Positions 3,898-27,009 of a DNA stretch of 55,078 nucleotides are shown here, in pieces. This stretch comes from an uncultured Bacillales bacterium (lineage in GTDB: Bacteria; Bacillota_I; Bacilli_A; RF39; UBA660): positions 1-55,078 of the forward strand of contig CAMJTE010000001.1 in the NCBI GenBank assembly GCA_946408655.1, given 5' to 3'. The notes below the pieces were generated by a model. The model made no database searches and was not told where the DNA came from. It was given only the letters and a program-made list of their open reading frames with translations. Numbering within the stretch: position 1 is the stretch's first letter; every line of letters starts with the position of its first letter. Both the position numbers and the translations under genes were made by a program.

Positions 3898-5736
3898 TTA
3901 TTTATTATAATTGGGTCTATAAAATCCATTAATTCTTTGCTTAGAACTTGCGTCACTTCCACAATAATCTGAGGAATATGTTCCTTTCGAAACAACGTTA
4001 CCTTTATTACCTTCAACAGTATGTATAGTTCCATCTTCTTCTACTTCAACAACAAATCCAATATGACTACTTAAATATTGATCACGATCATTAAATCCAG
4101 AAATAGGTGGATAAGACTCGGTAGTTCTTAAAGGATATGGAATGTACAAGCCAGAATAACCATATTCTGGATCAAAAACAATTAAATCACCCGGACGCGG
4201 CTTAGTATTTTTATCATAACATTCATCTTCATACCAAGTTCCTAATCCTTTTTTTACCGATTCCCTTACTATTCCATCTGCTGTAGCATCTTTAACAACT
4301 AATCCTTTTGTCCTACTATCTTGATTAAATAACCACCAAATAAACGCAGCACACCAGTCAGCATCACGTCCTATTTTTATTTCATCTTGATATAATGTGC
4401 CTCCATTCCCTATTTCGCCTTTTGCAATATAAATTAATTTATTTATAATTTCATTTGAATTTGGACTAGAAGATTCATAATTATTTTTCTTTGTAGCACT
4501 TATATAACATTGAGTGCCATCCAAGTTACCTACACTACATTTATAATTGTTTTCTTCAACAGGTTTTATATAACATCCTAATCCAATTAAACTTCCTTTT
4601 TCACATTTATAGTTAGAATTTTTTCTTGCATTTATATAACATTTACCATTGTATAAATCACCAAGACCACATTTATAATTGTTTTTTATATATGCATCTA
4701 TATAACATTGAGTGCCATCAACATTTCCAACACTACATTTATAGTTGTTTTCTTTACTTGCATTTGTATAACATCGTGTACCGTCCAAGTTCCCAACACT
4801 ACATTTATAATTGTTTTTCTCAGTAGCTTTTATATAACATCGAGTACCTTTTAAATTTCCTATACTACATTTATAATTGTTTTCTTTACTTGCATTTGTA
4901 TAACATTGTGTACCGTCCAAATTCCCGACACTACATTTATAATTGTTATTTACAATTAAATCTTTGTAACACATTTTGCCTTTTTTATCTCCACCAGAAG
5001 AACAAACATATTGATTTGTTGTACCAACAATTTTCGATGCGCTTCTAACACATTGATTGCCTTTTTTATCCCAGCCTGTTGGGCATTTGTATGTTGGGGT
5101 ATTGGTTGCAATACGATAACATTTAGAACTATATAATTTCCAACCCTTTGGACAACTATATTTTGGAGTACTAGTTGCACTCCTGTAACAATTACCGCCT
5201 TCTTTTCTCCAACCATCTGGGCATTTATATGATGGATAATTTACTGCACTTCTATAGCACTTAGAGCCATATAAACTCCAGCCTCTTGGGCAACTATATT
5301 TTGGAGTATTAGTTGCACTCCTGTAACACTTTGTAGCATATCTCCTCCACCCACTTGGGCAATCATATTCAGGTGTATTGGTTGCATTTCTATAACATTT
5401 TTCACCTAATAATCTCCAACCCTTTATACAACTATATGTAGTAGTGCTAGTTGCACTTTTATAACATTGATTACCTTTTCTTATCCAACCAGTTGGACAA
5501 TTATATGTTAGATTATTAGTTGCACTTCGATAACACTTAGTTCCTTTTTTATTCCAACCATCAGGACAAGAATAACCATCGAAATCAGAGATTGAGTCGT
5601 TTTTTAATAAATTATAATTATTTAGAAAATAAAGTGCGCCAAGAAGGATAAAAAAACAAACAATAATTATAGCAGTTGCTTTTTTACGTTTTTTTCCATT
5701 ATTTTCCATTAAGACATGAACAACTTTTCTTTTCAT
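3898..5736 (-). CDS. Membrane-anchored or secreted cell-wall hydrolase: 16 two-Cys mini-repeats plus a C-terminal CHAP amidase/peptidase domain
   Basis: 612 aa. N-terminal basic and TM segment. Residues 55-419 are 22-23 aa repeats (Y-x-C-P-x-G-W-x3-G-x-x-C-Y, then Y-K-C-S-V-G-N-L-D-G-T-x-C-Y). CHAP motifs DWCAAFIWWLFNQ, GDLIVFD, SHIGFVVEV..HTVEGN. GGAG RBS 8 nt upstream. Confidence 0.8.
   Translation of the reverse strand: MKRKVVHVLMENNGKKRKKATAIIIVCFFILLGALYFLNNYNLLKNDSISDFDGYSCPDGWNKKGTKCYRSATNNLTYNCPTGWIRKGNQCYKSATSTTTYSCIKGWRLLGEKCYRNATNTPEYDCPSGWRRYATKCYRSATNTPKYSCPRGWSLYGSKCYRSAVNYPSYKCPDGWRKEGGNCYRSATSTPKYSCPKGWKLYSSKCYRIATNTPTYKCPTGWDKKGNQCVRSASKIVGTTNQYVCSSGGDKKGKMCYKDLIVNNNYKCSVGNLDGTQCYTNASKENNYKCSIGNLKGTRCYIKATEKNNYKCSVGNLDGTRCYTNASKENNYKCSVGNVDGTQCYIDAYIKNNYKCGLGDLYNGKCYINARKNSNYKCEKGSLIGLGCYIKPVEENNYKCSVGNLDGTQCYISATKKNNYESSSPNSNEIINKLIYIAKGEIGNGGTLYQDEIKIGRDADWCAAFIWWLFNQDSRTKGLVVKDATADGIVRESVKKGLGTWYEDECYDKNTKPRPGDLIVFDPEYGYSGLYIPYPLRTTESYPPISGFNDRDQYLSSHIGFVVEVEEDGTIHTVEGNKGNVVSKGTYSSDYCGSDASSKQRINGFYRPNYNK
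4480..5574 (-). repeat. In-frame coding tandem repeat array (66/69-bp period, 16 units)
   Basis: Repeat units were counted from the translation. Some DNA copies are near-identical: about 4745-4815 versus 4877-4947 differ at 3 positions. Confidence 0.85.
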
Positions 5737-5788: not shown

Positions 5789-5808
5789 CAAATTTATTTA
5801 TTGTAAAA

Positions 5809-6989
5809 CTCATTATTTGCAGAGAGTGCCTAATTAATGTATAATAATTGATATAGTTATACATTGATGAGCAACTGTGCAATTATGACGTGGTGGTCCT
5901 CTGCATAGTTGTTCATCAATGTAGAGAGGATCACCAAATATGAAAATTAGAAATAAAATTGATAACTCAAGGAGAAAAACTCCTTGGGATGATAATGCAT
6001 CACTTACTGCTACGCAAAAATTTATTAAAATAAAATATGAAGAAAATTATTGTTTTAAGCATCCCAATTTGTTATTAACAAAGGAATTTGAACTATTAAA
6101 CTCTATAAAAATAGATGAATGCCGAAGATGTGGAACTAAAAACATCAGAAAAAAAGGTTTCTCTAGAAATAATGTTCAAATGTATTACTGTAATGAATGT
6201 GAGCGACACTTTGAACCAACAACTAATACTATTTTTGAAGAGCACAAAATTTCAATAACGGAGTGGATAGAGTTTTTGCTTGACTTATTTAATTACGGAA
6301 GCACGTCATTAGTATCTAAGGTTAACAAGAATTGTATTAATACTTCCAGATATTGGTTAACGAAAACCTTCTTAGTATTAAAAGATTATCAGCAATCTAT
6401 TCTTTTAAAAGGCACAGTATATGTTGATGAATTTTACTATAAAGTTATACAAAGTAAAATTATAACTAAAGATGGTAAGCAACTTAGAGGATTATCGAAA
6501 AATCAATTTTGTATTGGTTTAGGCTATGATAAAGAAAATATTATTGCTATTCTTGAAGGTGTTGGAAAACCAAGCGAAAATAAAACAAAATTAGCTTTTA
6601 TAGATCATATAAAAACTAATTCAAAACTAATTCATGATGAAGAGAAAAGTCATAAAGTATTAATTGATGAACTTAATCTTACAGATGAATCATATAATTC
6701 TAATGATTTGAAAAAACTTGATGATAAAAATAATCCTTTACAACCAATAAATCATATTTGTGATTTATTAAGAAAGTTTTTAAACTCACATAGTGGATTT
6801 GATAGAGACAATTTACAAGATTATCTTAATCTATTCTGTTTTATGCATAACGGTTATAAAAGTAATTTGGAAAGAATTGATAAACTATTGAATATAGCTT
6901 TAAATAAAAAAGTAAGGTTAAAATATCGTGAAATGTTTAAAAAACGTGATAATGATTGAGGTTGTCAGGCACTTTCTGCAAATAATGAG
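5809..6989 (+). mobile_element. IS1595-family insertion sequence
   Basis: 22-bp terminal inverted repeats (5809-5830 ctcattatttgcagagagtgcc; 6968-6989 is its reverse complement with 1 mismatch). Flanked by a perfect 12-bp direct repeat tttattgtaaaa (5797-5808 and 6990-7001). Single transposase ORF. Confidence 0.8.
5940..6959 (+). CDS. IS1595-family DDE transposase with N-terminal zinc ribbon
   Basis: 339 aa. CRRCG..x17..CNECERHF zinc ribbon followed by TNTIFEEHKISITEW, then a DDE-type core (VYVDEFYY). RBS GAGAGGA upstream. Confidence 0.8.
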   Translation: MKIRNKIDNSRRKTPWDDNASLTATQKFIKIKYEENYCFKHPNLLLTKEFELLNSIKIDECRRCGTKNIRKKGFSRNNVQMYYCNECERHFEPTTNTIFEEHKISITEWIEFLLDLFNYGSTSLVSKVNKNCINTSRYWLTKTFLVLKDYQQSILLKGTVYVDEFYYKVIQSKIITKDGKQLRGLSKNQFCIGLGYDKENIIAILEGVGKPSENKTKLAFIDHIKTNSKLIHDEEKSHKVLIDELNLTDESYNSNDLKKLDDKNNPLQPINHICDLLRKFLNSHSGFDRDNLQDYLNLFCFMHNGYKSNLERIDKLLNIALNKKVRLKYREMFKKRDND

Positions 6990-7109
6990 TTTATTGTAAA
7001 AGTTCTGTTCAATCTTTTGACTGATGATGTTATAAACAAGTTGTATTACCTATAAAACAATGTATTGATATATCTACTTATCAGTAATTTGCTTGAACAC
7101 AGCCATTGT

Positions 7110-7156: not shown

Positions 7157-9304
7157 TCACTCACTAAAGAAGTCATCAAAGAATTGATCATCTGTTACTC
7201 CACCATTCTGTTTTTCTTTTGTACTAGACTTATCAGGAGTAATAACTTCTTCGATATCAGCATCAATAACTTTTTTAGAATCATCCACACTCTTTTTTTC
7301 GTCAGATTTATTCTCAGATTTTTGTTCTTGTTCTTTTCTTTCTTCTTCTTCAAGTTCGGCAATTTTAGCATCTATTCTTTTTACCATTTCATCAATATTA
7401 AATGAATTATTATTAGGTTTTGATGATCCACCACCAAAAGGATTTGCACCCATTCCACCTAGTCCTGAAGGCATTCCATTCATTCCAGGAAGTCCAGGTA
7501 ATCCTGGTAGTCCTCCCGGCATCCCACCAAATCCACCAAGTGGTAATCCTCCACCAGTAGGATTAGGGCCACCGGAACCTAACATATTATTTATTTTATC
7601 TTCTCTTTTCTTTTCTACAAAACCTTTTAAATCAAAAACCTTCACAGGTAATTTTTCATGAACAGGATAAGTTGCCTTAGGATAATTAACTCCCCAATCC
7701 ATCTTAAAATTAGGTGTTAGTTTTGTTTTAAATGGCATCATACGAATTCTAAGAACAATAGTTTCCCACATTTTCATACGTTGTAAGTCACTTACAGTAA
7801 CTAACGGAGTTGATGAGGTTTTCTCTTTTTCCTTAGATTTAACTTCACCACACATTTTACTAATCTCTTCAAGTGCAGAAAGTTCAGAACTAATTAAATA
7901 AATAATATTACCACAGTTACCTTTTATAGTCTCTCCATTTTCTTTACCATAAACTTCATAAAGCTGAGCAAAGTTCTGAATAATAAAAGTAAATCTAATA
8001 TTTCTTGAACGAGCTGCAGTAACCATTGTAGTAACATCTTTTAAAGGAGGCATATTAGCAAACTCATCTAGAATAAAGTTAGTTCTATGAGGTAATTTTC
8101 CTCCACTTTCTTGTGCAACAGAAATCAACGTTTCATAACATTGCTTTAGAAATATTGTAACTAATGCATGATAAGTTTTCTTTTCATCTTGAATAACTAT
8201 AAATACAGCTGTTTTCTTTCTACCAATATCACGCATATCGAAGTCATTATGCGCAAGCATTTCAGATAAGTTTTCACGAGAAGCAAACAACTTTATTTTT
8301 TGTTTAAATACTGATAGTATACTTCCTCTAGTTTCATTCGGAGCCATAATTGTTGAAGATGCATTAACATATGCAGGACTAGCAGGATCTTTATAACTAA
8401 AATATTCATTAACATACTTAGTATTACCTATTTTTTCTTCACCAACAGTAGTCATCAAGTTAATACTATTTAAATTTATTTCATCTTCCGCGGCATCTTC
8501 AAACAATCCTAATGATAAACCAGCAAAATAGTCTGCAGAAGTGTTTTCCCAGAATGGATCTTGCCCTTTAGATGATTCATCATAAAGTATATTTTTAGCA
8601 AGGTCATCTAATAACTCATTAGCCTTATCTTGATTACCATTTTGATAAAACGAATATGGTAAACTCATCGGATTCCAAGAATTACCTTGTTGTGGGTCAC
8701 GAAAGTTTAAAAGAACTATGTTATAACCTAAGTCTCTTAACATCTCAGATGTATCTTCAAAAATTTCACCCTTTGGGTCTGTTATAATCATTGATTCATC
8801 ATGCTTACAAAGCAATTGTACCATAGGAAGTACAGTAGTCTGTGTTTTACCTGCACCAGTAGAACCAATAACTAGATTATGGTATCCTCCATCATCAACC
8901 CAAGCTTCCTTTTCATTCATTATGATAGGAATACCAGCAGCATCATTATGTTTAGCCTTAGGATCAACTTTTTTTAATTCCTCTTTCATCTCTTTATCTT
9001 TAGCCCAACGAGAATAGTTTTTTTCTTTTTTAGCACCCACTTCAATTCCAACGCCACTACTTCTTTCAAATATATATGATTTAACACTTATTAAACCAAT
9101 AATTATTCCAATAAAGAACCCTACAATGGTCATTGAAAACATAATTCCATTAGTAAATACTAAGAATATATTTGCAGTAAATGGTTCTTCCTCGACAAAT
9201 GCATTAATATTTACAACTAAAAGTTGTACAACAATAAGCCAAACAAAAGAAAAAATACAGAAAATCAATAAATCTTTAGGCTCGACTCTTAATCTTAGTT
9301 TCAT
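7157..9304 (-). CDS. Type IV coupling protein (VirD4/TraG/TcpA-like)
   Basis: 715 aa. Two N-terminal TM helices. Walker A GSTGAGKTQT, TDPKGE, Walker B-like NFILDEFANMPP. C-terminal Gly/Pro/Met-rich low-complexity segment and acidic-aromatic tail. GGAGG RBS. Confidence 0.85.
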   Translation of the reverse strand: MKLRLRVEPKDLLIFCIFSFVWLIVVQLLVVNINAFVEEEPFTANIFLVFTNGIMFSMTIVGFFIGIIIGLISVKSYIFERSSGVGIEVGAKKEKNYSRWAKDKEMKEELKKVDPKAKHNDAAGIPIIMNEKEAWVDDGGYHNLVIGSTGAGKTQTTVLPMVQLLCKHDESMIITDPKGEIFEDTSEMLRDLGYNIVLLNFRDPQQGNSWNPMSLPYSFYQNGNQDKANELLDDLAKNILYDESSKGQDPFWENTSADYFAGLSLGLFEDAAEDEINLNSINLMTTVGEEKIGNTKYVNEYFSYKDPASPAYVNASSTIMAPNETRGSILSVFKQKIKLFASRENLSEMLAHNDFDMRDIGRKKTAVFIVIQDEKKTYHALVTIFLKQCYETLISVAQESGGKLPHRTNFILDEFANMPPLKDVTTMVTAARSRNIRFTFIIQNFAQLYEVYGKENGETIKGNCGNIIYLISSELSALEEISKMCGEVKSKEKEKTSSTPLVTVSDLQRMKMWETIVLRIRMMPFKTKLTPNFKMDWGVNYPKATYPVHEKLPVKVFDLKGFVEKKREDKINNMLGSGGPNPTGGGLPLGGFGGMPGGLPGLPGLPGMNGMPSGLGGMGANPFGGGSSKPNNNSFNIDEMVKRIDAKIAELEEEERKEQEQKSENKSDEKKSVDDSKKVIDADIEEVITPDKSSTKEKQNGGVTDDQFFDDFFSE

Positions 9305-9315
9305 AATTCCTCCAT

Positions 9316-9762
9316 CTATCTAAAATCAACAGTATAGTTCATTACACCATTAGATTTAAATGTTACACGATTATTATTTCCATCAATAATAGAATAATAT
9401 GTATATTTACCCTTCTTATAATAATTTAATTTAGTAACTTTTGTACTAGATAAATCCATTTTACTTACATAACTTTTAAATTCTTCTATCGTATATAATT
9501 GTTTCATACTGTCTTTTTCAAATTTTGCGTAAGCCTTTTCAACATCAATGTGTATTAAGTTATAATAATTACTTAAATATATTGATGCCTGTTTATCAGC
9601 AGTTATGTAAGAACTATTATAAACATTATAATCATTTTTAGCAATACTACTTACTATTTTTTTATTATGAATTGTCATATATAGTACAACATCTAATCCA
9701 ACTAATACAACAACAACAAGCAAGATGATAGAATAATCTCTTTTACTTAATTCAAAATCCAT
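9316..9762 (-). CDS. Small N-terminally anchored protein of unknown function (possible VirB8/TcpC-like scaffold)
   Basis: 148 aa. One TM helix then a ~110-aa beta-rich domain. GGAGG RBS. The VirB8-like idea rests only on size, topology and position. Confidence 0.35.
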   Translation of the reverse strand: MDFELSKRDYSIILLVVVVLVGLDVVLYMTIHNKKIVSSIAKNDYNVYNSSYITADKQASIYLSNYYNLIHIDVEKAYAKFEKDSMKQLYTIEEFKSYVSKMDLSSTKVTKLNYYKKGKYTYYSIIDGNNNRVTFKSNGVMNYTVDFR

Positions 9763-10256
9763 TGTTCTACCTCCTTAAATGTTTTACCATTATCAGGAAC
9801 AATTGCAAAAGAACTATTTTTATTATCAACTAATACAATAATATAATAATCGCTAACTGTTTCATAACTATCCATTGAATTTTTTTCTATCATACCATAC
9901 ACATAAAATTTATTAATATTTTTACTAATTTTTTCATAATACATCTTTTCACCTACAAAAGATATATTGCTATCAGAATATTTATTAACATATTTAAAAA
10001 TATTACTTATATTAATTCTCTTTTGTGAAACATAGTTACCATCTAGTAATTTAATAATACTTTCTTTATTACTATCATTAGAATAATGAACAAATTTATT
10101 TACTATTCCCACAACATCATAATACTGAGTACTATTATCAACAATTTTTACATTTGAATAATCTTTTTTTTCATCATTATTAATCAAAATATATATAGTA
10201 GATACAATAAACATAAAAGCAATTATAAATAAAATATCCTTTAAATATATCTTCAT
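9747..10256 (-). CDS. Small N-terminally anchored protein of unknown function (possible VirB8/TcpC-like scaffold)
   Basis: 169 aa. One TM helix plus a ~140-aa extracytoplasmic domain. GGAGG RBS. Overlaps the next gene by 16 nt. Confidence 0.35.
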   Translation of the reverse strand: MKIYLKDILFIIAFMFIVSTIYILINNDEKKDYSNVKIVDNSTQYYDVVGIVNKFVHYSNDSNKESIIKLLDGNYVSQKRINISNIFKYVNKYSDSNISFVGEKMYYEKISKNINKFYVYGMIEKNSMDSYETVSDYYIIVLVDNKNSSFAIVPDNGKTFKEVEQWILN

Positions 10257-10265: not shown

Positions 10266-11621
10266 CTAGTAATAGTGAATTGTACCTCCAAATCCTTTTG
10301 CGGTTTCTTCAACAATTTTAGCTAATTTAGATTTTTCATCATTTGGTACATTAAAATTACCTATACATTCTATATTTCCATCATCACTTTGTTGATCATG
10401 TGTTGTATATATTCCTGATGTAAATACCAACCATTCTGATTTTCTTCTTTTTATTAATCCCGGCCAAGTTATGCCATTACCATGAACATATTCACAAAAT
10501 GATTGAAATAATTTATATGTATATCCATATTTCTTGTAACCATCAATGACATTATATGTAAAACCAGCTCCACCATTATATTCACTCGACGTTAAAGCAA
10601 GAATTTGATTATTATTTAAGGTTACTCCGTTATCACTTAAAATTTTTTCAACAGATTTTCTATGTAGTTGCATTGCATAGAGATATACCCTATCTATATC
10701 TGCCTTAGGAACCCTAGAACCAACATATATTTGTGATGGATCAACGCCAGCAAGCCTAAATGCTTCAACTTCATGTGGTGTTATTCCAGGACCTATTGTC
10801 CAAACAACCCCATCTCCGCCATCATAAGCAACATAATACTCTCCTTCTTCAACACCACCTTCAAAATATCTAACCCAGTCTAATAATTCTTGTGGAATAA
10901 AACAATCATCTTCACTTGTGCCGCCTGGACCACTAGGCCTAGAATTTTCAGGATCTATATAATTTAAAGGATCGACTCTCGCCCCAAATTCATCTTGACC
11001 TTCTCTAACCTCAAAATGTAGATGTGTACCAGTTGAATGACCACTTGAACCAACTTTACCTATAACTTGTCCTTGTACAACCTTATCCCCAGCATTAACC
11101 TTAATAGTATTCTGATGAAGGTGTCCATAATATTGATAATTACCATCATTTGATTTAATAACAATGTGATTTCCATAAGAACCGCCACAACTATAATCTC
11201 CAAAAGAAACACATCCATTATAAGCTGATATAACTTCTCCAGATTGGGCAGCAATTACATTTACAACTCCAGCATCAGCTGCAGGAGCAATATCAAGACC
11301 ACCATGTCCATAATCATGAATCCCTGCCTCTGTTGCACCAAACGTTGATGATATATATACTGTATTAGGTTCTCCAGTAGCCATTTCTACTCCTTTTTCA
11401 TTGGTTACTTGATCGCTTCCAATAGGCCACATATATGACTTACTCCCACCACAGGCATCAGAATAACCCGAATCAGATCCACTATCTACTGGATATAAAT
11501 CATCAAAAAACTCTTTATAATCATATATATCTTGTCTTTCAAGTTCATACTCAGCAAAAATAATTGTAGGTATAATTAGCATTGTAATAATAAATAATAT
11601 ATATTTTTTCAAACTAATCAC
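10266..11621 (-). CDS. Bifunctional peptidoglycan hydrolase: M23/LytM metallopeptidase plus phage-type lysozyme domain
   Basis: 451 aa. Signal peptide. M23 motifs HGGLDI and GHSTGTHLHFEV. C-terminal lysozyme-like motifs (WVRYFEG, TIGPGIT, EYNGGAG, GLIKRRKSEW). The start is non-ATG: GTG at 11621, or TTG at 11612 preceded by AGGTGA. Confidence 0.8.
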   Translation of the reverse strand: MISLKKYILFIITMLIIPTIIFAEYELERQDIYDYKEFFDDLYPVDSGSDSGYSDACGGSKSYMWPIGSDQVTNEKGVEMATGEPNTVYISSTFGATEAGIHDYGHGGLDIAPAADAGVVNVIAAQSGEVISAYNGCVSFGDYSCGGSYGNHIVIKSNDGNYQYYGHLHQNTIKVNAGDKVVQGQVIGKVGSSGHSTGTHLHFEVREGQDEFGARVDPLNYIDPENSRPSGPGGTSEDDCFIPQELLDWVRYFEGGVEEGEYYVAYDGGDGVVWTIGPGITPHEVEAFRLAGVDPSQIYVGSRVPKADIDRVYLYAMQLHRKSVEKILSDNGVTLNNNQILALTSSEYNGGAGFTYNVIDGYKKYGYTYKLFQSFCEYVHGNGITWPGLIKRRKSEWLVFTSGIYTTHDQQSDDGNIECIGNFNVPNDEKSKLAKIVEETAKGFGGTIHYY

Positions 11622-11629
11622 CTCACAAC

Positions 11630-12271
11630 CTATATTTCATTACTAACTTTAATTTTTTTCATTACCATATATACTGCTAATAAAACAATAACAATTCCTG
11701 CACCTAAAATAATATAAATACTATATTTTGATAAAATAAAGCTTTTACTAGCTGTCCCTTTTGCAATCTTTATTTTAATACTAAAATCATTTTTATTCTC
11801 ATTAGTTAAATACCAAGTATATTTATTACCTTTAACTTTATCAGCATTATTACTTACAACTTTATTTTTAGTAATAATATTAATATTCAAATTATAATCA
11901 TACATACAATCTGTCATATCACTTAAATTTATTTCGTAATACTTTTCATCATCCATAATAACCTTTTTCTTAGTAAAGCATTGATTAATTGTATTAGCAT
12001 TTACAAAATCATATGGTTTATAAGTATATTTATAGATTGCAGAAATTATATTACCTTTTTTTTCTATTTTCTTTTCATACATTACATCATTATTAGCATG
12101 AAGAGGATACTGATTAGCATTTATTCTCTTCATGTTATCATCAGTATTTTCAACACTAATTCTAAACTCTTCTTTTATTGAAGAATCATTTATAAATAAA
12201 TAATATTCCTGTTTACATCCTGCTAACTCTAACAAAATTAGAATCAGCACCATAAACTTTATTTTCTTCAT
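11630..12271 (-). CDS. Lipoprotein with C-terminal TM anchor, unknown function
   Basis: 213 aa. Lipobox LLELAGC. C-terminal hydrophobic helix IYIILGAGIVIVLLAVYMV. Confidence 0.55.
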   Translation of the reverse strand: MKKIKFMVLILILLELAGCKQEYYLFINDSSIKEEFRISVENTDDNMKRINANQYPLHANNDVMYEKKIEKKGNIISAIYKYTYKPYDFVNANTINQCFTKKKVIMDDEKYYEINLSDMTDCMYDYNLNINIITKNKVVSNNADKVKGNKYTWYLTNENKNDFSIKIKIAKGTASKSFILSKYSIYIILGAGIVIVLLAVYMVMKKIKVSNEI

Positions 12272-12282
12272 ATTTCACCACA

Positions 12283-13566
12283 CTAATAATTAGGTCTAAA
12301 ATAACCATTTATTCCCTGTAATCCATAAGTTCCACAATGCGTTTTTCTATTATACTGTTTCTTTCTTACAGCATCCCCACTATTTCCTTCAACTGTATAA
12401 ACATATGTGTCATCTACCGCATATACATATCCAACGTGACTACTATAATATTTATCATTTCCATTAGCAGGCCAAGGAGTATATCCACCAACATATGGAT
12501 CAAATACGATGACATCTCCAGCAGCTGGAACTGTTCTTGGATCAGTACATTCATCTTCATACCAAGTTCCATAACCCGCTGCAACCGAAGCACGAGGAAT
12601 TTCACCTGCAATTAATGAACTTTTTATATACTTATCAATTCCTCCAATTTGATTAAATAACCAAGAAGTAAAAGCCGCACACCATTCAACTCTACCACCT
12701 GTATTAAACCAGCCCCAATATTTTGCTCCACCAGCATTAACTTGATCAGCTTCAGCAAGAGCAATTTCCGTCATTTTATCAATGGCTTCCTTACCAGTTT
12801 TAGAAACAACTGTACTAGCAGAATTATTTGGCCCTAATCCCGTAGAACAACTTTGAATCTCGGTTCCAGGAGTATGATATTTTAACTTAACATATTCTAT
12901 TAAAAAATCTTTATATTTTTTTAGGTCTAATTCATAACTTTCTTTTATAGATTCTTTATCATATTCACCATCTTCACACTTTAATGTTTCTTTAGAATAA
13001 TTAGATTTCTCAATGTCCTCTGCTTTTAACTCATCATTACTTTCTTCATTACTTTCTTCTTCATTTTTTTCTTCAGAATCATCTTTCTTACATTTATAGG
13101 TTATTGACTTTTTTACCATGTTCTTTGCAAGTATTTGCATATCATAAGAAAAATCATTAGCATTTAAATACGTATAACATGGATCATTTTTAAAATCATA
13201 TTCCCAATCCAAATTTGTAATCTGATTCTCATTTTTCAAAGAATTTCTATCATATCTATTTAAATTATTAGCAAAAACAGTAGGCAATTCTTCATTATTG
13301 TAATAAAGAGCAGCCATTATTAAAGGTAAATCTAGTGTTACTTTATATTTATTTTGATAAAGATAATATAGATCATACATTTTTAAATAAAATTTATATT
13401 CATTACCATTTCTACAATCATCATCTGAATTATCGTTTGTACAAGCTTTCATTGTTCCAAAATAGTCACTTAAATCAGATGAATCGTAATAATCAGATAT
13501 TTCATAAGCCCTATTTACTCCAACAAACATAAATATAATTAGAAATATTAATATTATCTTTTTCAT
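12283..13566 (-). CDS. Secreted CHAP-domain peptidoglycan hydrolase (paralog 2)
   Basis: 427 aa. Signal peptide, acidic linker. CHAP motifs EWCAAFTSWLFNQ, GDVIVFD, SHVGYVYAVDD..YTVEGN. C-terminal end INGYFRPNY. Confidence 0.8.
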   Translation of the reverse strand: MKKIILIFLIIFMFVGVNRAYEISDYYDSSDLSDYFGTMKACTNDNSDDDCRNGNEYKFYLKMYDLYYLYQNKYKVTLDLPLIMAALYYNNEELPTVFANNLNRYDRNSLKNENQITNLDWEYDFKNDPCYTYLNANDFSYDMQILAKNMVKKSITYKCKKDDSEEKNEEESNEESNDELKAEDIEKSNYSKETLKCEDGEYDKESIKESYELDLKKYKDFLIEYVKLKYHTPGTEIQSCSTGLGPNNSASTVVSKTGKEAIDKMTEIALAEADQVNAGGAKYWGWFNTGGRVEWCAAFTSWLFNQIGGIDKYIKSSLIAGEIPRASVAAGYGTWYEDECTDPRTVPAAGDVIVFDPYVGGYTPWPANGNDKYYSSHVGYVYAVDDTYVYTVEGNSGDAVRKKQYNRKTHCGTYGLQGINGYFRPNY

Positions 13567-13578
13567 AATTCCTCACTT

Positions 13579-14799
13579 TTAATAATTTGGTCTATAATAT
13601 CCGTTTATCATACAATCTTTTCTCTCATGCGTAACGAATACAACTCTTTCCGGATCATGGTTTCCTTCAACGGTATAAATATTTTTATCATCTACTGCAT
13701 AAACATATCCAACATGTCGACTGGAGTATCTATCCAAATAACAATCATCACCTGGCTTGCACGTATTCCAGTGAAGTACATCTCCCGACTTTGGAACTGT
13801 TTTAGAATCAGTACATTCGTCTTCATACCAAGTACCATATCCATTCGCAACAGCTCCTCTTGCACCAGGACCAGCTGCACCAGATTTTTCATAGTACTTA
13901 TCTAATCCATTTACTTGGTCAAAAAGCCATGAAACAAACATTCCACACCAATCAGCTTCAAGTCCATACCAATCTTGATATTTTCTTCTTCCAACTCCAT
14001 TTTCCGCTTCCTTTGTTGCAATTTCATTTATTTTATCAATAGTCTGATTACCAGTTTTAGGAACAGGAACAGGTGGTGTACTACTAGATGTTGACTCACC
14101 ATAATAATTAGAACCTTCTGAATTATTATTGCTGCTATTAGCATCATCGCCACTTTGATTACTATACCATTCAGTCAACTCTTCTTCTATTGGATTAGAT
14201 TTTGATGCAAGATATGCTTTACCACCAGAATCTGCAAGAGAAGAAACCATTATAACACAAAAGAAAATTGCCCCAACAAGAATACCTCCGCAAATAAAAA
14301 TAAATAAATATTTCATTTGCCTAGTTGTAATTGCTGTATATCTCGCCTCAGCAGCATCAGGTTTATATTCTTCTCCTAGCTGTTCTGCTCTATTAGCCTC
14401 TTCAACATCATCAGCACTAGCATTAGCTTTATCCCCAACTTTAGACATCAAGTTTTGAAAAAAACCCTTATTTCTAGTACTTTTAATTCTTTCAATCATT
14501 TTAGCCATTTTAGCATATTTGCGGGCTACTGGAATTCTTTCAGCAATCTTAATCGCTTTATCTATATTTTTTCCATTTTGCATCCTTCTAGTAGAATTTC
14601 TACTATTTATACCGGAAATACTACTAGAAGAACGGGTAGTAGAAGAAGTACTCCCACTTATTAATGAACTAGATGAAGATAATCCTCCTCCAGAATCTCG
14701 TTTACCAATGCTACTCCTACGTCCTTGTACAGCAGCATCTTTTCTTAACTGTCCCGTTTGTTTTGCAGTTGAAATTCCTTTAGCTACATTATCTTTCAT
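13579..14799 (-). CDS. Bitopic CHAP-domain peptidoglycan hydrolase (paralog 3) with Ser-rich cytoplasmic N-terminus
   Basis: 406 aa. Ser/Arg-rich N-terminal ~165 aa, then a TM helix (YLFIFICGGILVGAIFFCVIMV). CHAP motifs DWCGMFVSWLFDQ, RHVGYVYAVDD..YTVEGN. C-terminal end INGYYRPNY. Confidence 0.8.
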   Translation of the reverse strand: MKDNVAKGISTAKQTGQLRKDAAVQGRRSSIGKRDSGGGLSSSSSLISGSTSSTTRSSSSISGINSRNSTRRMQNGKNIDKAIKIAERIPVARKYAKMAKMIERIKSTRNKGFFQNLMSKVGDKANASADDVEEANRAEQLGEEYKPDAAEARYTAITTRQMKYLFIFICGGILVGAIFFCVIMVSSLADSGGKAYLASKSNPIEEELTEWYSNQSGDDANSSNNNSEGSNYYGESTSSSTPPVPVPKTGNQTIDKINEIATKEAENGVGRRKYQDWYGLEADWCGMFVSWLFDQVNGLDKYYEKSGAAGPGARGAVANGYGTWYEDECTDSKTVPKSGDVLHWNTCKPGDDCYLDRYSSRHVGYVYAVDDKNIYTVEGNHDPERVVFVTHERKDCMINGYYRPNY

Positions 14800-14816: not shown

Positions 14817-16604
14817 TTATAATCCTCCTCCACTACCAAACGATTCTAATTCAGCATCAGAAGCAATTACATTAATACGCATACGTCTTGATCCGCATAC
14901 AAAGAGTGCTTCTCCTTGTCCATATTGTTTAATACTTTCTGCCTCACTATCATTTAAATCAATCAACCTAGCAAGATCGAATACCGCCTGTTTCTTTAAT
15001 CCCATAACTAAATAATATGAAGCATTATCAAATATAGCTTTACCTTGAGTGATAACAGCAGGATCACTAAAGTCAGTCGGTTGTTGAGTTATTAACATAG
15101 TCCCTGTATTATACTTACGTGCACGTCTTTGCATTTGTGCAAGAAAATCTGCTCCCAACGTATTTCCACCACTTAATAGAACGTGTGCTTCATCAACCAT
15201 CATAACTGTATTAATTTTAGGATTTAAAGTAAGACCCCAAGCATATTTTAATATATTAAAGAATAATGCATTCTTAATATTAGAATCAGCATTCATAACT
15301 TCCCTAATGTTAAATACTATAAAATTACTATTAGGAGAAATTGTTGTATGACCATCAAAATAATACTTCAACTCTCTAACTATAGGTCTAATCTTTAACT
15401 CAAGTCTTTCAAGAACATCTTTTTCTTGTGTTTTTTCTGGCATTGCAAGAATACGACCTTTAATAGTAGCATATACATCTTTAAATGTTGGGTAATCTTC
15501 AGAAGAAAATCTAGTAAAATCACTATTATAGTCAATACCAAAACGTTTATAAGTCTCTTGTACTACTTCACTAAACATATTAACTAAATCCTCAGTAATA
15601 GAAGGATCATAATACTTTAAAAACGCCTTAATAGTTTGTAGAGTACGAGTTAAAACAGTATATCCTAACCCTTGTTTCATCTCCTCTTCATCAGCATCAA
15701 GTACAACCTCAAGTGGATTAATCATACCAAATTCTCCACCCTTACCAAGGTCAATAAAATCTCCTCCGTAAAGATTAACCATATCCTCAAGTTCACCTTC
15801 AGGATCGATTATAACTAACTGATGGCCATTTCTAATATGACTTCTTAACATTATCTTTGCAGCAGTAGATTTTCCACTACCAGAAGTACCTAAAATAATC
15901 ATATTAGCATTATTTCTATTACTTTCTTTTCTTATTTGATATAAGAATTGATTAAATAAAACTACACCACCAGAAAAATCTATACCAAGTAAAGTTCCCA
16001 ATCCTGGATCTTTAATACTATCAAATATAAAAGGATACATCGCAGCCATAGTAGGTGCTGGAATTGGAGTACCAATTCGATCTTCAATATCTTGTTTACC
16101 ATAAATAGGTAGACATGATTTTAAAACTTGATCTTGTTCAAAACGTAGAGGTATAGCCCTAAGTTCCATAGACTCTAAATAATTACGAACTTGTAACTTC
16201 TTTAATTCTAATTCTTCCTTAGTATCAGCAGTAATCATAATATGCATCTGAAAATCATATATCTTAGCTTGACTTGCAGCTAACTCACTTATAAATTGTT
16301 CCAAAGATTCATAATCTTGACGAATTCTTTCTTGAATAGTTCTATCATTTTCATCTTGATATCTTTGCTTTAAGTCAGCAAGTTCTTTATTAAGCATCTT
16401 ACTCATACTACTAAAAGGTAAAGGTATATGCTTAATAACTAACTTAATACCAGACATACTAGTTAAACTAGATAAATAACCTGGATAAATAAATTTTGGA
16501 TAAGAAATAACACTTAGTATAGTTGCATATTTATCACTAACAATAAACTCACTAGGTTTAAATTCAAGCCCCTTAGGAGCAATTTCAGCTTTAATATTAC
16601 TCAT
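14817..16604 (-). CDS. VirB4-type T4SS ATPase, central and C-terminal part
   Basis: 595 aa. Walker A GTSGSGKST, Walker B MMVDEAHVLL, ITQQPTDF. Its start overlaps the upstream stop as ATGA. Confidence 0.85.
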   Translation of the reverse strand: MSNIKAEIAPKGLEFKPSEFIVSDKYATILSVISYPKFIYPGYLSSLTSMSGIKLVIKHIPLPFSSMSKMLNKELADLKQRYQDENDRTIQERIRQDYESLEQFISELAASQAKIYDFQMHIMITADTKEELELKKLQVRNYLESMELRAIPLRFEQDQVLKSCLPIYGKQDIEDRIGTPIPAPTMAAMYPFIFDSIKDPGLGTLLGIDFSGGVVLFNQFLYQIRKESNRNNANMIILGTSGSGKSTAAKIMLRSHIRNGHQLVIIDPEGELEDMVNLYGGDFIDLGKGGEFGMINPLEVVLDADEEEMKQGLGYTVLTRTLQTIKAFLKYYDPSITEDLVNMFSEVVQETYKRFGIDYNSDFTRFSSEDYPTFKDVYATIKGRILAMPEKTQEKDVLERLELKIRPIVRELKYYFDGHTTISPNSNFIVFNIREVMNADSNIKNALFFNILKYAWGLTLNPKINTVMMVDEAHVLLSGGNTLGADFLAQMQRRARKYNTGTMLITQQPTDFSDPAVITQGKAIFDNASYYLVMGLKKQAVFDLARLIDLNDSEAESIKQYGQGEALFVCGSRRMRINVIASDAELESFGSGGGL

Positions 16605-17461: not shown

Positions 17462-19462
17462 TTATCCAATAGTAGATTTATCAGCTTGAACTTTTCTTTG
17501 TTGTTTTCCAAGATCTTTGATTTTTTGCTCATTGTCTGCAATTTTTTCTCTATCCGAACTAATACTCTGTTCAAGTGCAAAATTATCATTTGTAAATTTA
17601 TTCTTATCCGCATCCAATCCTGCTGCATCCTTCGCAGCATTTGTTCCACGCATAGCAGCATATGCAGAATAATTATTCTTTAAATCATCATCAGTAGCCA
17701 AATTTGCATTTATCCAAGCATCACGTCCAGTTGTATTTGCATATGTTTCAGCATCAAATTTAAGTTCAGATGCCTTGGCACCACGTTCTTGATCATTAGA
17801 CCATTTATATATTTTTCCATTAACGGTTACACTTCCTTTAGAAGCTTTACTAGATAACAATCCATCAGCATTATTTAAATAATCTTTATAAATTTGTCCT
17901 GCTGCGCCACTACCTTGTTTAACTTTTTTTACACCTCGATCTTGGATTTTTTCAATATATCCTGATGCCTTATTATTCTCTGATATTTTTCTCTCGGTAG
18001 GAGCAATTTTTGCCTGCAAGTCTTTATTTTCATTTTCATATTGTTTAACTCGTCTTTCAACTCTAGATTCAGCACCACCAAATCCAGTCTTTTTTGCAAA
18101 TCTTGCACCTAATCTTCCATGCCAAGTTGATCCATTCATTCGAGCATCTCTTAATTTACTTGCATAATCAGCTTGATGTTTTGCAGCATCGCCAAAGCCT
18201 TTACCACTCATAAATCCCGCTGCTGCACCTCTAAGTCCTCTTCCATGCATTGCTCCAATCGCTAATCCACCTGCAGCTCCTGTAATTCTTTTTCCACCTA
18301 CTGCTCCTTCTTCTAATTTCTTAAGTGGATTAAGACTAAACTTACCATCACCTTCAATTTTAACCCCCATATTTTCAAGTATCTTTGGTAATTGTTTTAT
18401 GAACATTAATACTCCAATAATAACAAATATTTTAACCCAACCATTCGTTATTTGTGAACCATTAACTATATCATACATTCCCATATCTGCTACTTTAGTT
18501 ATAATATATATACCAAAGTATAGTGCAAGCAATCTAATAAATAAACTTAAAAATGTTGAAACACACATCTTATACCATTTTGAAAACATGCCATCTTTTC
18601 CACTTTTTGGATCCATATATGATATAACTGGTATTGGATATATTAATTGTAAGAAAGCGAGTTTTACACTTCTAACGCCAATATCTATACAGAATGATAT
18701 TAATAGTAAGCATACTACAACCGCAGTAACGGTTGATAATGGTTTTTTATAATCTATTATAAAGTGTTGATCTGATGGAGTGTCTTCATCTTCTGCATCA
18801 TTTGTAGTTGCTAAAGCTGTCGATGTTCTAAATGTAAGCCCAAGACTTTTATTTGCAATACCATAAGTATAATTTTCTAGATGAGGGCTATTAAGTCCAG
18901 CAGACTCTAAAGCATTAGTACAAGCCTCGCTAAAGTCACCATTTTCATCAACCATGTTCATACATTCTGAAAGACCTTCTACAGAATAATTTGGACTAAA
19001 GAAAGGCATCATTACATAAAATGCCATTCTATTACCCGCTGTATCAAGAATAGTCGATTCTCCTTCACCTTGTATCTTCTCACCTAAAAGGAGTTTAGCA
19101 AGTATATTATCATCTAACACTTTGGCTTGTAAACTAAATGCCATTTGAAAAATATATGGCACTAAAACTAAAAGCACAAGAGATATAACTGAACTTTGAA
19201 TAAGTTTACCAAAGCCTTTGCTTTTATCTGAAAATTCATCTGGATTAACCACATATGTAATCAACGAAAAAGAAACTTTGAACAGCATAAAAATTCCAAG
19301 TAATATTTCTATTCTAGCTGCAAAAGACGCTATATCTCCTTGAGATAATATAGACGTTCTTGAAATAGCTATTAATAAATCATATAGAGTTCCTATAAAA
19401 TTAAACAAAGTGGTATCTAATGACATAAAGAATCTAACCATTAATTTTTCAAACCACAACAT
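17462..19462 (-). CDS. Polytopic T4SS channel protein (VirB6/TrbL/TcpH/ConG-like)
   Basis: 666 aa. About 6-7 TM helices in the first ~370 aa, then a Gly-rich amphipathic stretch and a coiled-coil C-terminal region. The position is typical for a VirB6 analogue. Confidence 0.55.
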   Translation of the reverse strand: MLWFEKLMVRFFMSLDTTLFNFIGTLYDLLIAISRTSILSQGDIASFAARIEILLGIFMLFKVSFSLITYVVNPDEFSDKSKGFGKLIQSSVISLVLLVLVPYIFQMAFSLQAKVLDDNILAKLLLGEKIQGEGESTILDTAGNRMAFYVMMPFFSPNYSVEGLSECMNMVDENGDFSEACTNALESAGLNSPHLENYTYGIANKSLGLTFRTSTALATTNDAEDEDTPSDQHFIIDYKKPLSTVTAVVVCLLLISFCIDIGVRSVKLAFLQLIYPIPVISYMDPKSGKDGMFSKWYKMCVSTFLSLFIRLLALYFGIYIITKVADMGMYDIVNGSQITNGWVKIFVIIGVLMFIKQLPKILENMGVKIEGDGKFSLNPLKKLEEGAVGGKRITGAAGGLAIGAMHGRGLRGAAAGFMSGKGFGDAAKHQADYASKLRDARMNGSTWHGRLGARFAKKTGFGGAESRVERRVKQYENENKDLQAKIAPTERKISENNKASGYIEKIQDRGVKKVKQGSGAAGQIYKDYLNNADGLLSSKASKGSVTVNGKIYKWSNDQERGAKASELKFDAETYANTTGRDAWINANLATDDDLKNNYSAYAAMRGTNAAKDAAGLDADKNKFTNDNFALEQSISSDREKIADNEQKIKDLGKQQRKVQADKSTIG

Positions 19463-19516
19463 AGTTATTCACCGCTTCCTTTTTCATAATTTTTTACAAT
19501 AAATCATTCTGATAGA

Positions 19517-19545
19517 ATTATATCAAAAAAGGCATAAAAAAACAA
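19517..19545 (-). promoter_or_regulatory. Candidate promoter for the VirB6-to-VirD4 operon
   Basis: Minus strand reads TTGTTT, 17 nt, then TGaTATAAT (extended -10). The -35 overlaps the upstream terminator stem. Confidence 0.3.
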
Positions 19546-19559
19546 GCATGAAGCTTGCT
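19534..19559 (-). terminator. Intrinsic terminator (probably partial) after the fourth VirB2-like gene
   Basis: Minus strand reads agcaagc-ttcat-gcttgtt, a 7-bp stem that includes one G-U pair. It is followed by a T-rich run. Confidence 0.5.
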
Positions 19560-19565
19560 AAAAAA

Positions 19566-19958
19566 TTAATTACGTAATTGACAAGATGCCGATGTATTAT
19601 CACTTGCATTACCACTTACAAAGCAGTTAAAACAACTCATAATACTGTTTTCATCAGTTCCTGCAACAAATCTAACAACTAATTGAACTAATGATACTAC
19701 AAAGAATACGATAACTGCGGCAATTAATCTTTTTATAAAAGTAGTTTGATTTTTCTTAATTTCATCTTCCTTACCAGCAATAACCGCCTTAGCTAAGTCT
19801 AACATACCAAAAATAATTAATAAAATTGGAACAATAATTTTAATTAACATTACGATTGTAGATACTACATATGGAAACATACCACTAAATACAAAATTAT
19901 TAATATTTCCACAAGAATACTCTAACCCCATATCAACTTTTGCCAAAATTTCAAACAT
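19566..19958 (-). CDS. VirB2/TrbC-like two-TM protein, paralog 4 (no cleavable signal peptide)
   Basis: 130 aa. TM1 (IKIIVPILLIIFGMLDL), charged loop AGKEDEIKKNQTTFIKR, TM2, and a Cys-rich tail (SCFNCF...SC). It has its own promoter and terminator. Confidence 0.5.
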   Translation of the reverse strand: MFEILAKVDMGLEYSCGNINNFVFSGMFPYVVSTIVMLIKIIVPILLIIFGMLDLAKAVIAGKEDEIKKNQTTFIKRLIAAVIVFFVVSLVQLVVRFVAGTDENSIMSCFNCFVSGNASDNTSASCQLRN

Positions 19959-19982
19959 ATCTTTTCCTCCTAAACTAATTTA

Positions 19983-20011
19983 ATTATATATCTTAATAAC
20001 AATTTTGTCAA
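19983..20011 (-). promoter_or_regulatory. Consensus sigma-A promoter for paralog 4
   Basis: Minus strand reads TTGACA (20011-20006), an exact 17-nt spacer, then TATAAT (19988-19983). AGGAGG RBS downstream. Confidence 0.75.
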
Positions 20012-20017
20012 TATACG

Positions 20018-21100
20018 CTATTTTATTATATAAGGATCTTTTTCAGTTCCACTACCAGATATAAATAGCTCTTCTCCATCAATATAAATAACCCAATGAT
20101 ACTTTTGATATCTGCTTGTCTCTGCTAACTCTACACCAATAGAATTAATTAAATAAGCTACCGAATCATCTTCAGATACTGTATCAACTGTCCAACTATA
20201 ATCTATAAAATTAGCAATATAATTATAATTTGTACATGACAAATCACCAATTTTCTTACAATTTGCATCATAACTTGCCTGTAAGAAATCAGTTATACTT
20301 GGTAAAGTAATTAACTGTCCATCCAATGTTTCATTACATTCAGTAGTAATACCAAGACTTAAATCTTCTTTAGAACGTTTTCCTATACATACACTATGAG
20401 GAACAATTTTACCTCTAATATCATTATTCATTGTTTTATCATTTTTATAATCATATAGTAATCTATCTATAATTACACTATCTTTATAATTATTAATACC
20501 AGTATAAGAATTCTTATTTATATTATACTTATTATCCCAGTTAAAAGACATATCTTGAGCTTTTTCTTTAATAAGTTTTAAATTACCATTAGAATCTATC
20601 TTAATTATTCTATATATAGTTCCATAGAAAGATAAATAATTCTTAACCTTATTACCTTTAAAAATGTATTCATCCCCAATTTTATAAAGACCAGAACCAG
20701 CTTCAACAACATCTTTCATTAAATAATCTTTTAAGTACTCAGTCTTATAATTATCACATTCTAAATATGGAATATATGAATAATATTTACCTTCAGTAGT
20801 ACTATTATTCTTAACAACAACACTACCACTACAACTTGAATCCTTCAAAGCTTTATCTGGACTTTTTAATCCATCATCAATTAAATTATCAAGTTTTATA
20901 ATAGTACTCTTACCATTCTTAGGTAAGATTTTATGATTTTTAGCATAATTTTTTGCCCTATTCATCATCATTTCTTCATATTTAGAATATGATTTTTTAC
21001 TGCTACAACCTCTAAGAAGTGCCATAAGTAAAATAAACAGTAAGGGCAACGATATTAATACAACACACGTTACCAAAAATTTTGAATCTAACTTTTTCAT
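20018..21100 (-). CDS. Exported (possibly lipid-anchored) protein of unknown function
   Basis: Start reassigned to MKKLDSKF at 21100, where AGGTGA lies 4 nt upstream (track start 21130). Hydrophobic N-terminus ending LLRGC. About 320 aa extracytoplasmic with several Cys. Confidence 0.55.
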   Translation of the reverse strand: MKKLDSKFLVTCVVLISLPLLFILLMALLRGCSSKKSYSKYEEMMMNRAKNYAKNHKILPKNGKSTIIKLDNLIDDGLKSPDKALKDSSCSGSVVVKNNSTTEGKYYSYIPYLECDNYKTEYLKDYLMKDVVEAGSGLYKIGDEYIFKGNKVKNYLSFYGTIYRIIKIDSNGNLKLIKEKAQDMSFNWDNKYNINKNSYTGINNYKDSVIIDRLLYDYKNDKTMNNDIRGKIVPHSVCIGKRSKEDLSLGITTECNETLDGQLITLPSITDFLQASYDANCKKIGDLSCTNYNYIANFIDYSWTVDTVSEDDSVAYLINSIGVELAETSRYQKYHWVIYIDGEELFISGSGTEKDPYIIK

Positions 21101-21108
21101 TAAATCAC

Positions 21109-21549: not shown

Positions 21550-21560
21550 AAATTCACTCC

Positions 21561-22436: not shown

Positions 22437-22445
22437 AAAATCACC

Positions 22446-26877: not shown

Positions 26878-26898
26878 TATATCACCAGAATTAATTTT

Positions 26899-26944: not shown

Positions 26945-27009
26945 ATTTGGTATGTTTGTGATTTTAATTTTTGTATTTTTTTATTAATTGTACTTAAAAT
27001 CGCAACAAT

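Follow-up and report, generated by a model that had tools for sequence, protein, structure and literature searches.

The window analysed here, a stretch of 55,078 nucleotides, is one whole contig (CAMJTE010000001.1) of a 1.44-Mb, 84%-complete metagenome-assembled genome of ~27% G+C, and the present analysis concerns four peptidoglycan hydrolase genes, labelled slots A to D, which lie in its type IV secretion system (T4SS) locus. An earlier note, made from the letters alone, had described an M23 plus lysozyme protein, a secreted CHAP protein, a bitopic CHAP protein with a Ser-rich tail and a third CHAP protein beyond an insertion sequence (IS); this description is borne out by Pfam searches and by hydropathy. 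All four genes are intact minus-strand open reading frames at the coordinates listed below, where lengths are in amino acids (aa) and TM stands for transmembrane.

14817-16604, minus strand: VirB4 ATPase (Pfam AAA_10 and TraG P-loop), directly upstream of the hydrolase block
13579-14799, minus strand: slot A hydrolase, 406 aa; Ser-rich tail (1-164), TM helix (165-183), linker and CHAP domain (Pfam CHAP, E 4e-7)
12283-13566, minus strand: slot B hydrolase, 427 aa; signal peptide, ~210-aa alpha/beta N-domain and CHAP domain (Pfam CHAP, E 6e-9)
11630-12271, minus strand: lipoprotein, 213 aa; LAGC lipobox, beta-rich ectodomain and C-terminal TM helix
10266-11621, minus strand: slot C hydrolase, 451 aa; Pfam Peptidase_M23 (E 5e-22) and Phage_lysozyme/GH24 (E 4e-9)
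9747-10256, minus strand: p169; N-terminal TM helix and ~140-aa ectodomain
9316-9762, minus strand: p148; N-terminal TM helix and ~115-aa ectodomain, pairs with p169
7157-9304, minus strand: VirD4 coupling protein (Pfam T4SS-DNA_transf, E 2e-57), the downstream boundary of the block, syntenic in all surveyed loci
5806-6992, plus strand: IS1595-family IS with 26-nt terminal inverted repeats (5806-5831 and 6967-6992)
3898-5736, minus strand: slot D hydrolase, 612 aa; signal anchor, 16 two-cysteine repeats and CHAP domain (Pfam CHAP, E 2e-7)

The interval between virB4 and virD4 is filled by six tightly packed genes, which follow virB4 in the order slot A, slot B, lipoprotein, slot C, p169 and p148. 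The spacing from virB4 through p169 is 8-17 bp, p169 and p148 overlap by 16 bp, and the end of p148 lies 11 bp from virD4; the slot D gene lies beyond virD4 and the IS. Every gene from 7157 to 34610 is on the minus strand, the oppositely oriented IS being placed within the T4SS locus between the slot D gene and virD4. Its transposase matches the NCBIfam IS1595 model with an E value of 1e-16 and a score of 61.3 bits, which is under the model's 75-bit cut-off, and the corresponding place in the sister species G004, G003 and G007 holds no IS.

The CHAP domains (PF05257) of the three proteins score 31.0-36.8 bits against a gathering cut-off of 26, while the M23 (PF01551) and GH24 (PF00959) domains of slot C score 78.3 and 37.2 bits against cut-offs of 28.7 and 22.3, respectively. 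The earlier suggestion that the three CHAP domains are paralogues with the same catalytic contexts and a shared C-terminal end is upheld by pairwise identities of 47-53% and by an invariant catalytic Cys (WC), His (SxH) and EGN motif, and all three proteins end in ING[FY][YF]RPNY. This shared ending was considered as a secretion tag and rejected, since it is the last strand of the CHAP domain and general to the CHAP subfamily. The zinc ligand motifs HxxxD (HGGLD) and HxH (HLH) of the slot C M23 domain align with those of solved M23 enzymes, and the catalytic Glu of GH24, within an (F/L/W)EG motif, is retained in 12 of 13 locus homologues. The slot C M23 domain also gives a SpoIIQ-like NCBIfam match (E 4e-12), far under the cut-off of that model.

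Protein topology was read from hydropathy. The 164-aa N-terminus of slot A is basic and rich in Ser, Lys and Arg and is followed by one TM helix, slots B and C begin with cleavable-type signal peptides, and the N-terminal anchor of slot D leads into 16 repeats of 22-23 aa with two cysteines each, arranged as a 23-aa array and a 22-aa array. In slot C the signal peptide is followed by a conserved leader motif, ELERQDIYDYKEFFD, the M23 metallopeptidase and the GH24 lysozyme. All four hydrolases are predicted to be exported via Sec, two of them remaining membrane-anchored and two being released into the wall; the anchor typical of VirB1-like proteins fits slots A and D, whereas slots B and C depart from it with their cleavable-type signal peptides. 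The N-terminal modules are confined to the T4SS locus and have no further copies in the genome. An AlphaFold2 (AF2) model of slot B (pLDDT 81.5) places its CHAP part close to Ly7917 and the Gsp amidase in a fold search, while the N-domain, although confidently folded, is without a match in either the fold search or the sequence-profile search of solved structures, the fold search speaking neither for nor against a VirB8/NTF2-like fold. The two-cysteine repeat of slot D (Y-x-C-x2-G-x5-7-C-Y, residues 55-420) is absent from Pfam; it recurs in metagenomic proteins, joined there to M23 or Ser/Thr kinase domains, and one weak match carries the annotation TraN mating-pair stabilisation protein.

Inheritance of the secretion locus

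Of the 299 genomes sampled from the family, 285 have VirB4, representing 121 of 127 genera and genome sizes of 0.6-1.6 Mb, at an identity of at least about 70% among the matches listed. One side of the block is flanked by rnr, rmuC and a rhodanese gene, the other by scpAB. Within the genus, the block is syntenic together with both flanks in G003 and G007 and with the scpAB side in G004, the contigs of G002 and G005 being partial, and the order virB4-hydrolase(s)-lipoprotein-virD4 is kept in 20 other genera, with the rhodanese gene and/or rmuC next to it in most.

VirB4 shows an amino acid identity of 94-98% within the genus as compared to 80-87% for RNase R, and its ratio of nonsynonymous to synonymous divergence (dN/dS) is 0.03-0.04. 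The synonymous divergence (dS) is ~1 against G003 and G007 and 0.6-0.9 against G004, with VirB4 similar to the flanking housekeeping genes. Saturated dS together with such a low dN/dS indicates that the conservation is due to purifying selection and not to recent transfer; recent horizontal transfer as the source of the high VirB4 identity is ruled out by the dS of ~1 against G003 and G007 and of 0.6 against G004, as found in the flanks. VirB4 is also better conserved within the genus than either RNase R or ScpA.

The earlier note had taken the locus for an ordinary conjugative one, a premise that does not hold. An ordinary integrative and conjugative element (ICE) is ruled out by the same chromosomal flanks across genera and by the lack of a relaxase or integrase at the locus; the relaxase families PF03432 and PF02486 have no match within the window. 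Judged by these gene comparisons, the T4SS with its Tad-like locus is a core, vertically inherited chromosomal trait and not a mobile element, the family comprising gut Bacilli with small genomes and most likely belonging to the order RF39. The literature search retrieved no paper describing a T4SS in RF39. The two PF03432 matches of the genome lie on contigs C15 and C19, and on the latter, at about 18500-22800 (L151), a separate ICE-like set comprises a VirB4 28% identical to that of the window, one M23 hydrolase directly downstream and the PF03432 relaxase, an in-genome example of the usual one-hydrolase conjugative layout.

The genome encodes penicillin-binding proteins and Mur ligases, which indicates that the organism is walled and has a wall of its own to open. 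The locus further contains four pilin-like paralogues. Between the pilin-like genes and a TadC-like gene, three genes (25517-27900; 273, 179 and 296 aa) have no counterpart at that place in any sister species; by their look they resemble a putative inserted toxin-antitoxin or nuclease-type cassette. At 45652-54634, a 548-aa large serine recombinase is followed by defence- or restriction-like genes (a 792-aa NTPase-like, a 397-aa ATPase-like, a 397-aa HNH-containing and a 373-aa methyltransferase-like protein), probably an integrated island.

Hydrolase number and exchange of catalytic domains

The hydrolase content was surveyed in 86 species with locally built profiles, checked by Pfam on cluster representatives; these profiles under-detect some domains, so that the counts are lower bounds, and the GH73 count remains low. 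The loci were gathered with VirB4 as the seed, the slot A protein having given no related loci as a seed. One hydrolase gene is present between virB4 and virD4 in 48 species, two in 33 and three in three, the last all belonging to the genus of the window. With four hydrolase genes and five catalytic domains, the present genome stands at the top of the range; two sister species carry five catalytic domains in three genes, and near relatives carry three to four in two genes. The unusual hydrolase load reported earlier is therefore sustained against the baseline of the same T4SS, though the relatives with three to four domains in two genes narrow the difference.

The TM helix of the first hydrolase lies between residues 100 and 300 (median 167) in 54 of 85 species, as in PrgK (PMC11323569, PMC12857230), and in a subset of them the helix is followed by the slot B N-domain and then by the enzymes; 43 block proteins carry this N-domain. 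The occurrence of both features in the first gene of relatives indicates that slots A and B are the halves of a split ancestral gene, slot A retaining the N-terminal half of the PrgK-like hydrolase adjacent to virB4. Comparison of the loci shows the reconstructed ancestral state to be a single PrgK-like gene directly after virB4, with the lipoprotein gene next to it, its predicted product comprising a cytoplasmic tail of ~150-200 aa, one TM helix, a conserved non-enzymatic ectodomain and one to three wall-enzyme domains. A single anchored hydrolase of this kind with a lipoprotein behind virB4 is also the arrangement in most of the 86 surveyed species.

Three changes in the lineage of the window are shown by the same reconstruction. 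A subclade gained a second hydrolase slot together with partner genes for it, slot C being found in one VirB4 clade of 28 species and in two scattered loci (L112 and L137). The first gene was split into a predicted anchored half (slot A) and a predicted secreted half (slot B), with a CHAP domain on each, and a stalked CHAP protein (slot D) was gained next to virD4. A phylogeny of the CHAP domains, proposed as a check in the earlier note, places the domains of the genus that end in ING..RPNY in one clade (support 81/75), which makes the three CHAP copies genus-level duplicates. The observation that a PrgK-like domain repertoire is here spread over several genes and duplicated is thereby accounted for by fission of the ancestral hydrolase and duplication of CHAP within the genus.

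Among the sister species the N-terminal modules are conserved, while the enzymes behind them differ. The slot A module (Ser-rich tail, TM helix and a YLAS..NPTEEE motif) carries CHAP in the present genome, GDSL/SGNH plus CHAP in G002, GDSL/SGNH plus a YkuD-like domain in G003 and G004, M23 in G005 and nothing in G007. The slot B module (signal peptide and ~210-aa N-domain) is followed by CHAP, by M23 or, in G005, by an unassigned region plus CHAP, the region being SGNH-like by eye and without a Pfam match. The slot C module, consisting of the signal peptide and the leader motif, bears M23 plus GH24 in the present genome and in G003, and SpoIID plus CHAP in G004, G007 and G005, the gene of G005 being cut by the contig end. 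The slot D module (anchor and cysteine-repeat stalk) is intact in G004, where it lies directly beside virD4 without an IS, and is reduced to a 140-aa remnant in G003. Metagenomic homologues extend this pattern, with the slot B N-domain joined to M23, C39-like/C70 or CHAP domains and the slot D stalk carrying M23 in place of CHAP. Both SpoIID-domain and SpoIIQ-like M23 matches stem from the T4SS cassette (10266-11621 and, in related loci, L016:5018-6406 and L019:643-2097).

At least ten enzyme families occur across the loci, namely CHAP (in two deep clades), M23, SpoIID, C39-like, GH24, NlpC/P60, GH73, the endolysin-like domain (ELLD), SGNH and YkuD. A CHAP clade with a support of 100/99 unites slot A of G000 and G002 with slot B of G004, which indicates that the domain has moved between scaffolds. 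The identity of the hydrolase block to the sister species is 31-66% as compared to 82-98% for VirB4 and VirD4, other core genes being lower, and its dN/dS is 0.2-0.7 as against 0.03-0.1 for the core. Towards the nearest species, G002, the block has a dS of about 0.95-0.99 and the core one of 0.14-0.48. This excess suggests that the alleles either predate the species split or arrived by recombination.

Other surface-exposed parts of the locus are hypervariable among the sister species too: an 828-aa dockerin-bearing protein (32124-34610; 26-52% identity), the C-terminal half of a VirB6/TrbL-like protein (17462-19462) and one pilin-like paralogue (21109-21549). All three display a raised dS even towards the nearest species.

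Partner genes of the hydrolases

A partner gene typically follows each hydrolase gene. The lipoprotein has no Pfam or NCBIfam match and no sequence-profile match to solved structures; its AF2 model (pLDDT 84.6) shows a beta-rich domain that is fixed at either end, the best fold match of which is M. tuberculosis LppM (Foldseek E 5e-5, TM-scores 0.43/0.52, 10% identity), and the fold search revealed no resemblance to a known hydrolase inhibitor. The lipoprotein profile gave 96 matches among the proteins of 92 fetched blocks, corresponding to 89 distinct lipoproteins in 86 species; the protein is near-universal, loci with a single hydrolase included, and is among the fastest-evolving proteins of the locus, with 35-45% identity within the genus as compared to 95-98% for VirB4. 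The proteins p169 and p148 share a weak similarity (hhalign probability 80%). Neither gave an informative match: p169 has no Pfam or NCBIfam match and, as its only PDB match, a marginal one to the N-terminal domain of TarM (E 5e-4), and p148 has no PDB sequence match. Further copies of the lipoprotein, p148 or p169 were not found in the genome, which accordingly holds no orphan immunity arrays.

The clades of the lipoprotein tree match the type of the upstream hydrolase and not the position of the gene; lipoproteins that follow SpoIID plus CHAP enzymes group together, whether they belong to the first or to the second pair of the locus. The p169-p148 pair lies downstream of M23 (with or without GH24) in 17 of 17 loci, and a lipoprotein follows the SpoIID enzymes of slot C in 13 of 13. 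On the VirB4 tree of the genus, species with one slot C cassette are interspersed with species that have the other, and every change of enzyme is accompanied by a change of partner. A comparable case is given by G002, the core of which is 95-98% identical to that of the window: its slot B has M23 in place of CHAP, and the start of its lipoprotein (a 56-residue fragment) is 18.5% identical to that of the window and closest to that of G005, which carries the same M23 subtype as G002 slot B. These observations are suggestive of hydrolase modules that would travel with a cognate partner, either the lipoprotein or p169 and p148. Of the proposal that the lipoprotein could be an immunity or regulatory partner of the hydrolases, the part upheld is that it behaves as a specific partner, as its clades follow the upstream hydrolase type and it evolves fast; it may act as an immunity protein, an inhibitor or an anchor. 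A special link to the extra hydrolase copies is not supported, because a lipoprotein is present in nearly every locus.

Candidate functions of the hydrolase cassettes

The hydrolase genes probably represent a VirB1-like module that opens the wall for a T4SS of Gram-positive type, chromosomal, without a relaxase and joined to a Tad-like pilus; a probability of about 0.6 is assigned to this reading from sequence comparison. The conserved N-terminal modules would dock the enzymes on the machine, and the variable catalytic tips may jointly cut glycan strands and peptide stems, allowing the channel and the pilus to cross the wall. The membrane-pinned partner, whether the lipoprotein or p169 with p148, might position or restrain its own enzyme near the membrane of the producer. 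That tips and partners are freely exchanged while the machine itself is otherwise conserved speaks for diversifying selection at the cell surface, and we infer that this selection most likely stems from additional encounters of the enzymes with foreign walls at cell-cell contact. Some action in trans is favoured by the diverse bond specificities among sister species, the old alleles and the fast-evolving partners, as well as by the two released enzymes, the stalked one and the parallel hypervariability of other surface parts.

Besides the classified hydrolases considered next, CwlT of ICEBs1 is a further example from a monoderm T4SS. Among the VirB1-like proteins, PrgK of pCF10 belongs to the DELTA class, TraG of pIP501 to ALPHA and Orf14 of Tn916 to BETA (PMC11323569, PMC12857230), and PrgK binds a small bitopic neighbour, PrgL, which targets it to the machine (PMC11323569, PMC12857230). 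Like PrgK-type proteins, the present hydrolases are encoded in a monoderm T4SS cluster and draw on an enzyme set of M23/LytM, muramidase and CHAP; the PrgK architecture of a cytoplasmic N-terminal domain, one TM helix and extracellular wall-enzyme domains is matched by the ancestral first gene of the family and by slot A. They differ from PrgK in that the repertoire is distributed over four genes, two of them with cleavable signal peptides, the muramidase is GH24 and not SLT-like, the catalytic domains are exchanged among sister species, the partner role falls to a lipoprotein that is anchored a second time at its C-terminus, and the T4SS is chromosomal, family-wide and without a relaxase. A precedent for a partner acting in cis as a regulator is the Brucella autolysin SagA with its inhibitor PhiA (PMC8334348), likewise a T4SS-associated wall hydrolase with a dedicated partner, although the system is diderm and its one enzyme is lysozyme-like; neither in sequence nor in fold was a relation of the PhiA system to the lipoprotein or to p169/p148 found.

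Three points weigh against the wall-opening reading. The independent cassette switches on the VirB4 tree number only about 3-6, and with so few of them the co-variation of hydrolase and partner is suggestive but not statistically firm. The M23 and CHAP domains of T4SS hydrolases can be inactive regulators, as reported for PrgK (PMC11323569), and the intact motifs found here are in consequence no proof of activity. Furthermore, if the enzymes opened only the producer's own wall, the constant wall chemistry within a genus would give no obvious reason for a frequent exchange of bond specificity.

In a rival explanation, the hydrolases would serve contact-dependent attack or harvest, acting in trans on the wall of a bacterium held by the Tad-like pilus and adhesins, so as to open it for T4SS delivery or uptake or to release muropeptides, with the lipoprotein and p169/p148 as immunity proteins for the nascent wall of the producer. 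It is consistent with the exchange of tips among at least ten families around a nearly invariant machine, with alleles that predate the split from the nearest species, with a fast-evolving, membrane-pinned extracytoplasmic partner behind the hydrolase genes that switches with the enzyme, and with the release of two enzymes and a cysteine-repeat stalk long enough that it could reach past the wall of the producer. A relaxase-less, family-wide T4SS in genomes of 0.6-1.6 Mb also resembles that of the epibiotic Saccharibacteria (PMC10633639, PMC12102498), and for RF39 a peptidoglycan precursor synthesis with missing steps has been predicted, possibly together with a scavenging of muropeptides (PMC10868615), gaps that a harvesting role would, speculatively, fit. 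However, no target or partner organism is known, the genome holds no orphan partner or immunity genes elsewhere, the lipoprotein fold is unlike that of known hydrolase inhibitors, and ordinary conjugative Gram-positive T4SSs likewise have a membrane-anchored hydrolase beside VirB4 (PMC12857230); relaxed constraint, under which any wall cutter will do, could yield the swapping too. On balance, this explanation is possible but unlikely.

By analogy, the closest functional parallel would be the chromosomal T4SS of Patescibacteria (e.g. Ca. Southlakia epibionticum ML1). In Saccharibacteria/Patescibacteria epibiotic growth requires this T4SS, and the peptidase and lysozyme genes that come right behind virB4 have been reported as essential (PMC10633639, PMC12102498). 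Both systems are of the monoderm type, chromosomal across a whole lineage of reduced genomes and without a relaxase nearby, with a VirB2-like pilin array and hydrolase genes immediately downstream of virB4. The differences are the phylum, the absence of VirD4 from Southlakia (PMC10633639) and its retention here, the fusion to a Tad-like pilus module and the pairing grammar of hydrolase and lipoprotein in the present locus. On a further reading, the cassettes would be a polymorphic kit for breaching the walls of other bacteria, by which the T4SS and the Tad-like pilus attach to and open neighbours while the partners protect the producer, for the uptake or delivery of macromolecules or for the harvest of muropeptides that RF39-type Bacilli cannot make; this joint proposal is doubtful.

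Alternatively, the enzymes could be autolysins with housekeeping duties in cell separation, wall turnover or sporulation, their location in the operon being incidental. SpoIID, SpoIIQ-like M23 and CHAP domains do serve division and sporulation as well, and a predicted loss of most lyt/cwl endopeptidases in the RF39 ancestor (PMC10868615) makes a takeover of their role conceivable. The fixed position between virB4 and virD4 in 86 species with its tight spacing, the locus-specific N-terminal modules without other genomic copies and a content far too variable among sister species for a housekeeping role make this explanation highly improbable.

The X-Tfe effectors of Xanthomonas and Stenotrophomonas are Sec-independent, possess a C-terminal VirD4-recognition domain and are injected into diderm prey (PMC6759196, PMC8740702, PMC11253643). 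That the hydrolases are translocated antibacterial effectors of this X-Tfe/X-Tfi kind, recognised by VirD4 and injected through the channel into rivals with the lipoprotein as immunity protein, is scarcely credible: VirD4 is present, a small lipoprotein gene adjoins the hydrolase genes as in X-Tfe/X-Tfi pairs, and peptidoglycan hydrolases are typical effectors of such systems (PMC6759196, PMC8740702), but the Sec signal peptide or anchor on all four implies co-translational export and no cytoplasmic handover to VirD4, an extra C-terminal or recognition domain is lacking, and the T4SS is of the monoderm type without an outer-membrane core. The part of the earlier note's inference by which the extra copies may be translocated effectors is unsupported in view of the same export signals and of a shared C-terminal motif that merely closes the CHAP fold.

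That multidomain hydrolases accompany T4SSs is well known; new are the stepwise expansion of the load, the exchange of tips on scaffolds in a walled family of Bacilli and the grammar of hydrolase-partner pairs. Whether Gram-positive T4SSs do anything besides conjugation has been described in a review as a long-standing open question (PMC12857230), and in the present case almost all genomes of a large uncultured gut family have a strongly conserved T4SS on the chromosome, of whose core parts only the wall enzymes evolve fast; the swapping of these enzymes and their partners would mark the wall-cutting step as the site of adaptation of the machine. The locus thereby supplies concrete, testable enzyme-partner pairs. 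It also calls for caution in trait prediction, as SpoIID and SpoIIQ-like M23 matches may come from the T4SS cassette and not from sporulation genes, and surveys that score spoIID and spoIIQ for sporulation in RF39 (PMC10868615) may count T4SS genes.

If the wall-breaching proposal were true, the locus would be the Gram-positive equivalent of the epibiotic apparatus of Saccharibacteria, and Bacillota would have their first case of interbacterial wall attack linked to a T4SS. RF39-type bacteria, none of which has ever been cultured, are frequent in the guts of humans and animals; should the enzymes act on foreign walls, a contact-dependent lifestyle would be indicated for them, which may help in finding their partners.

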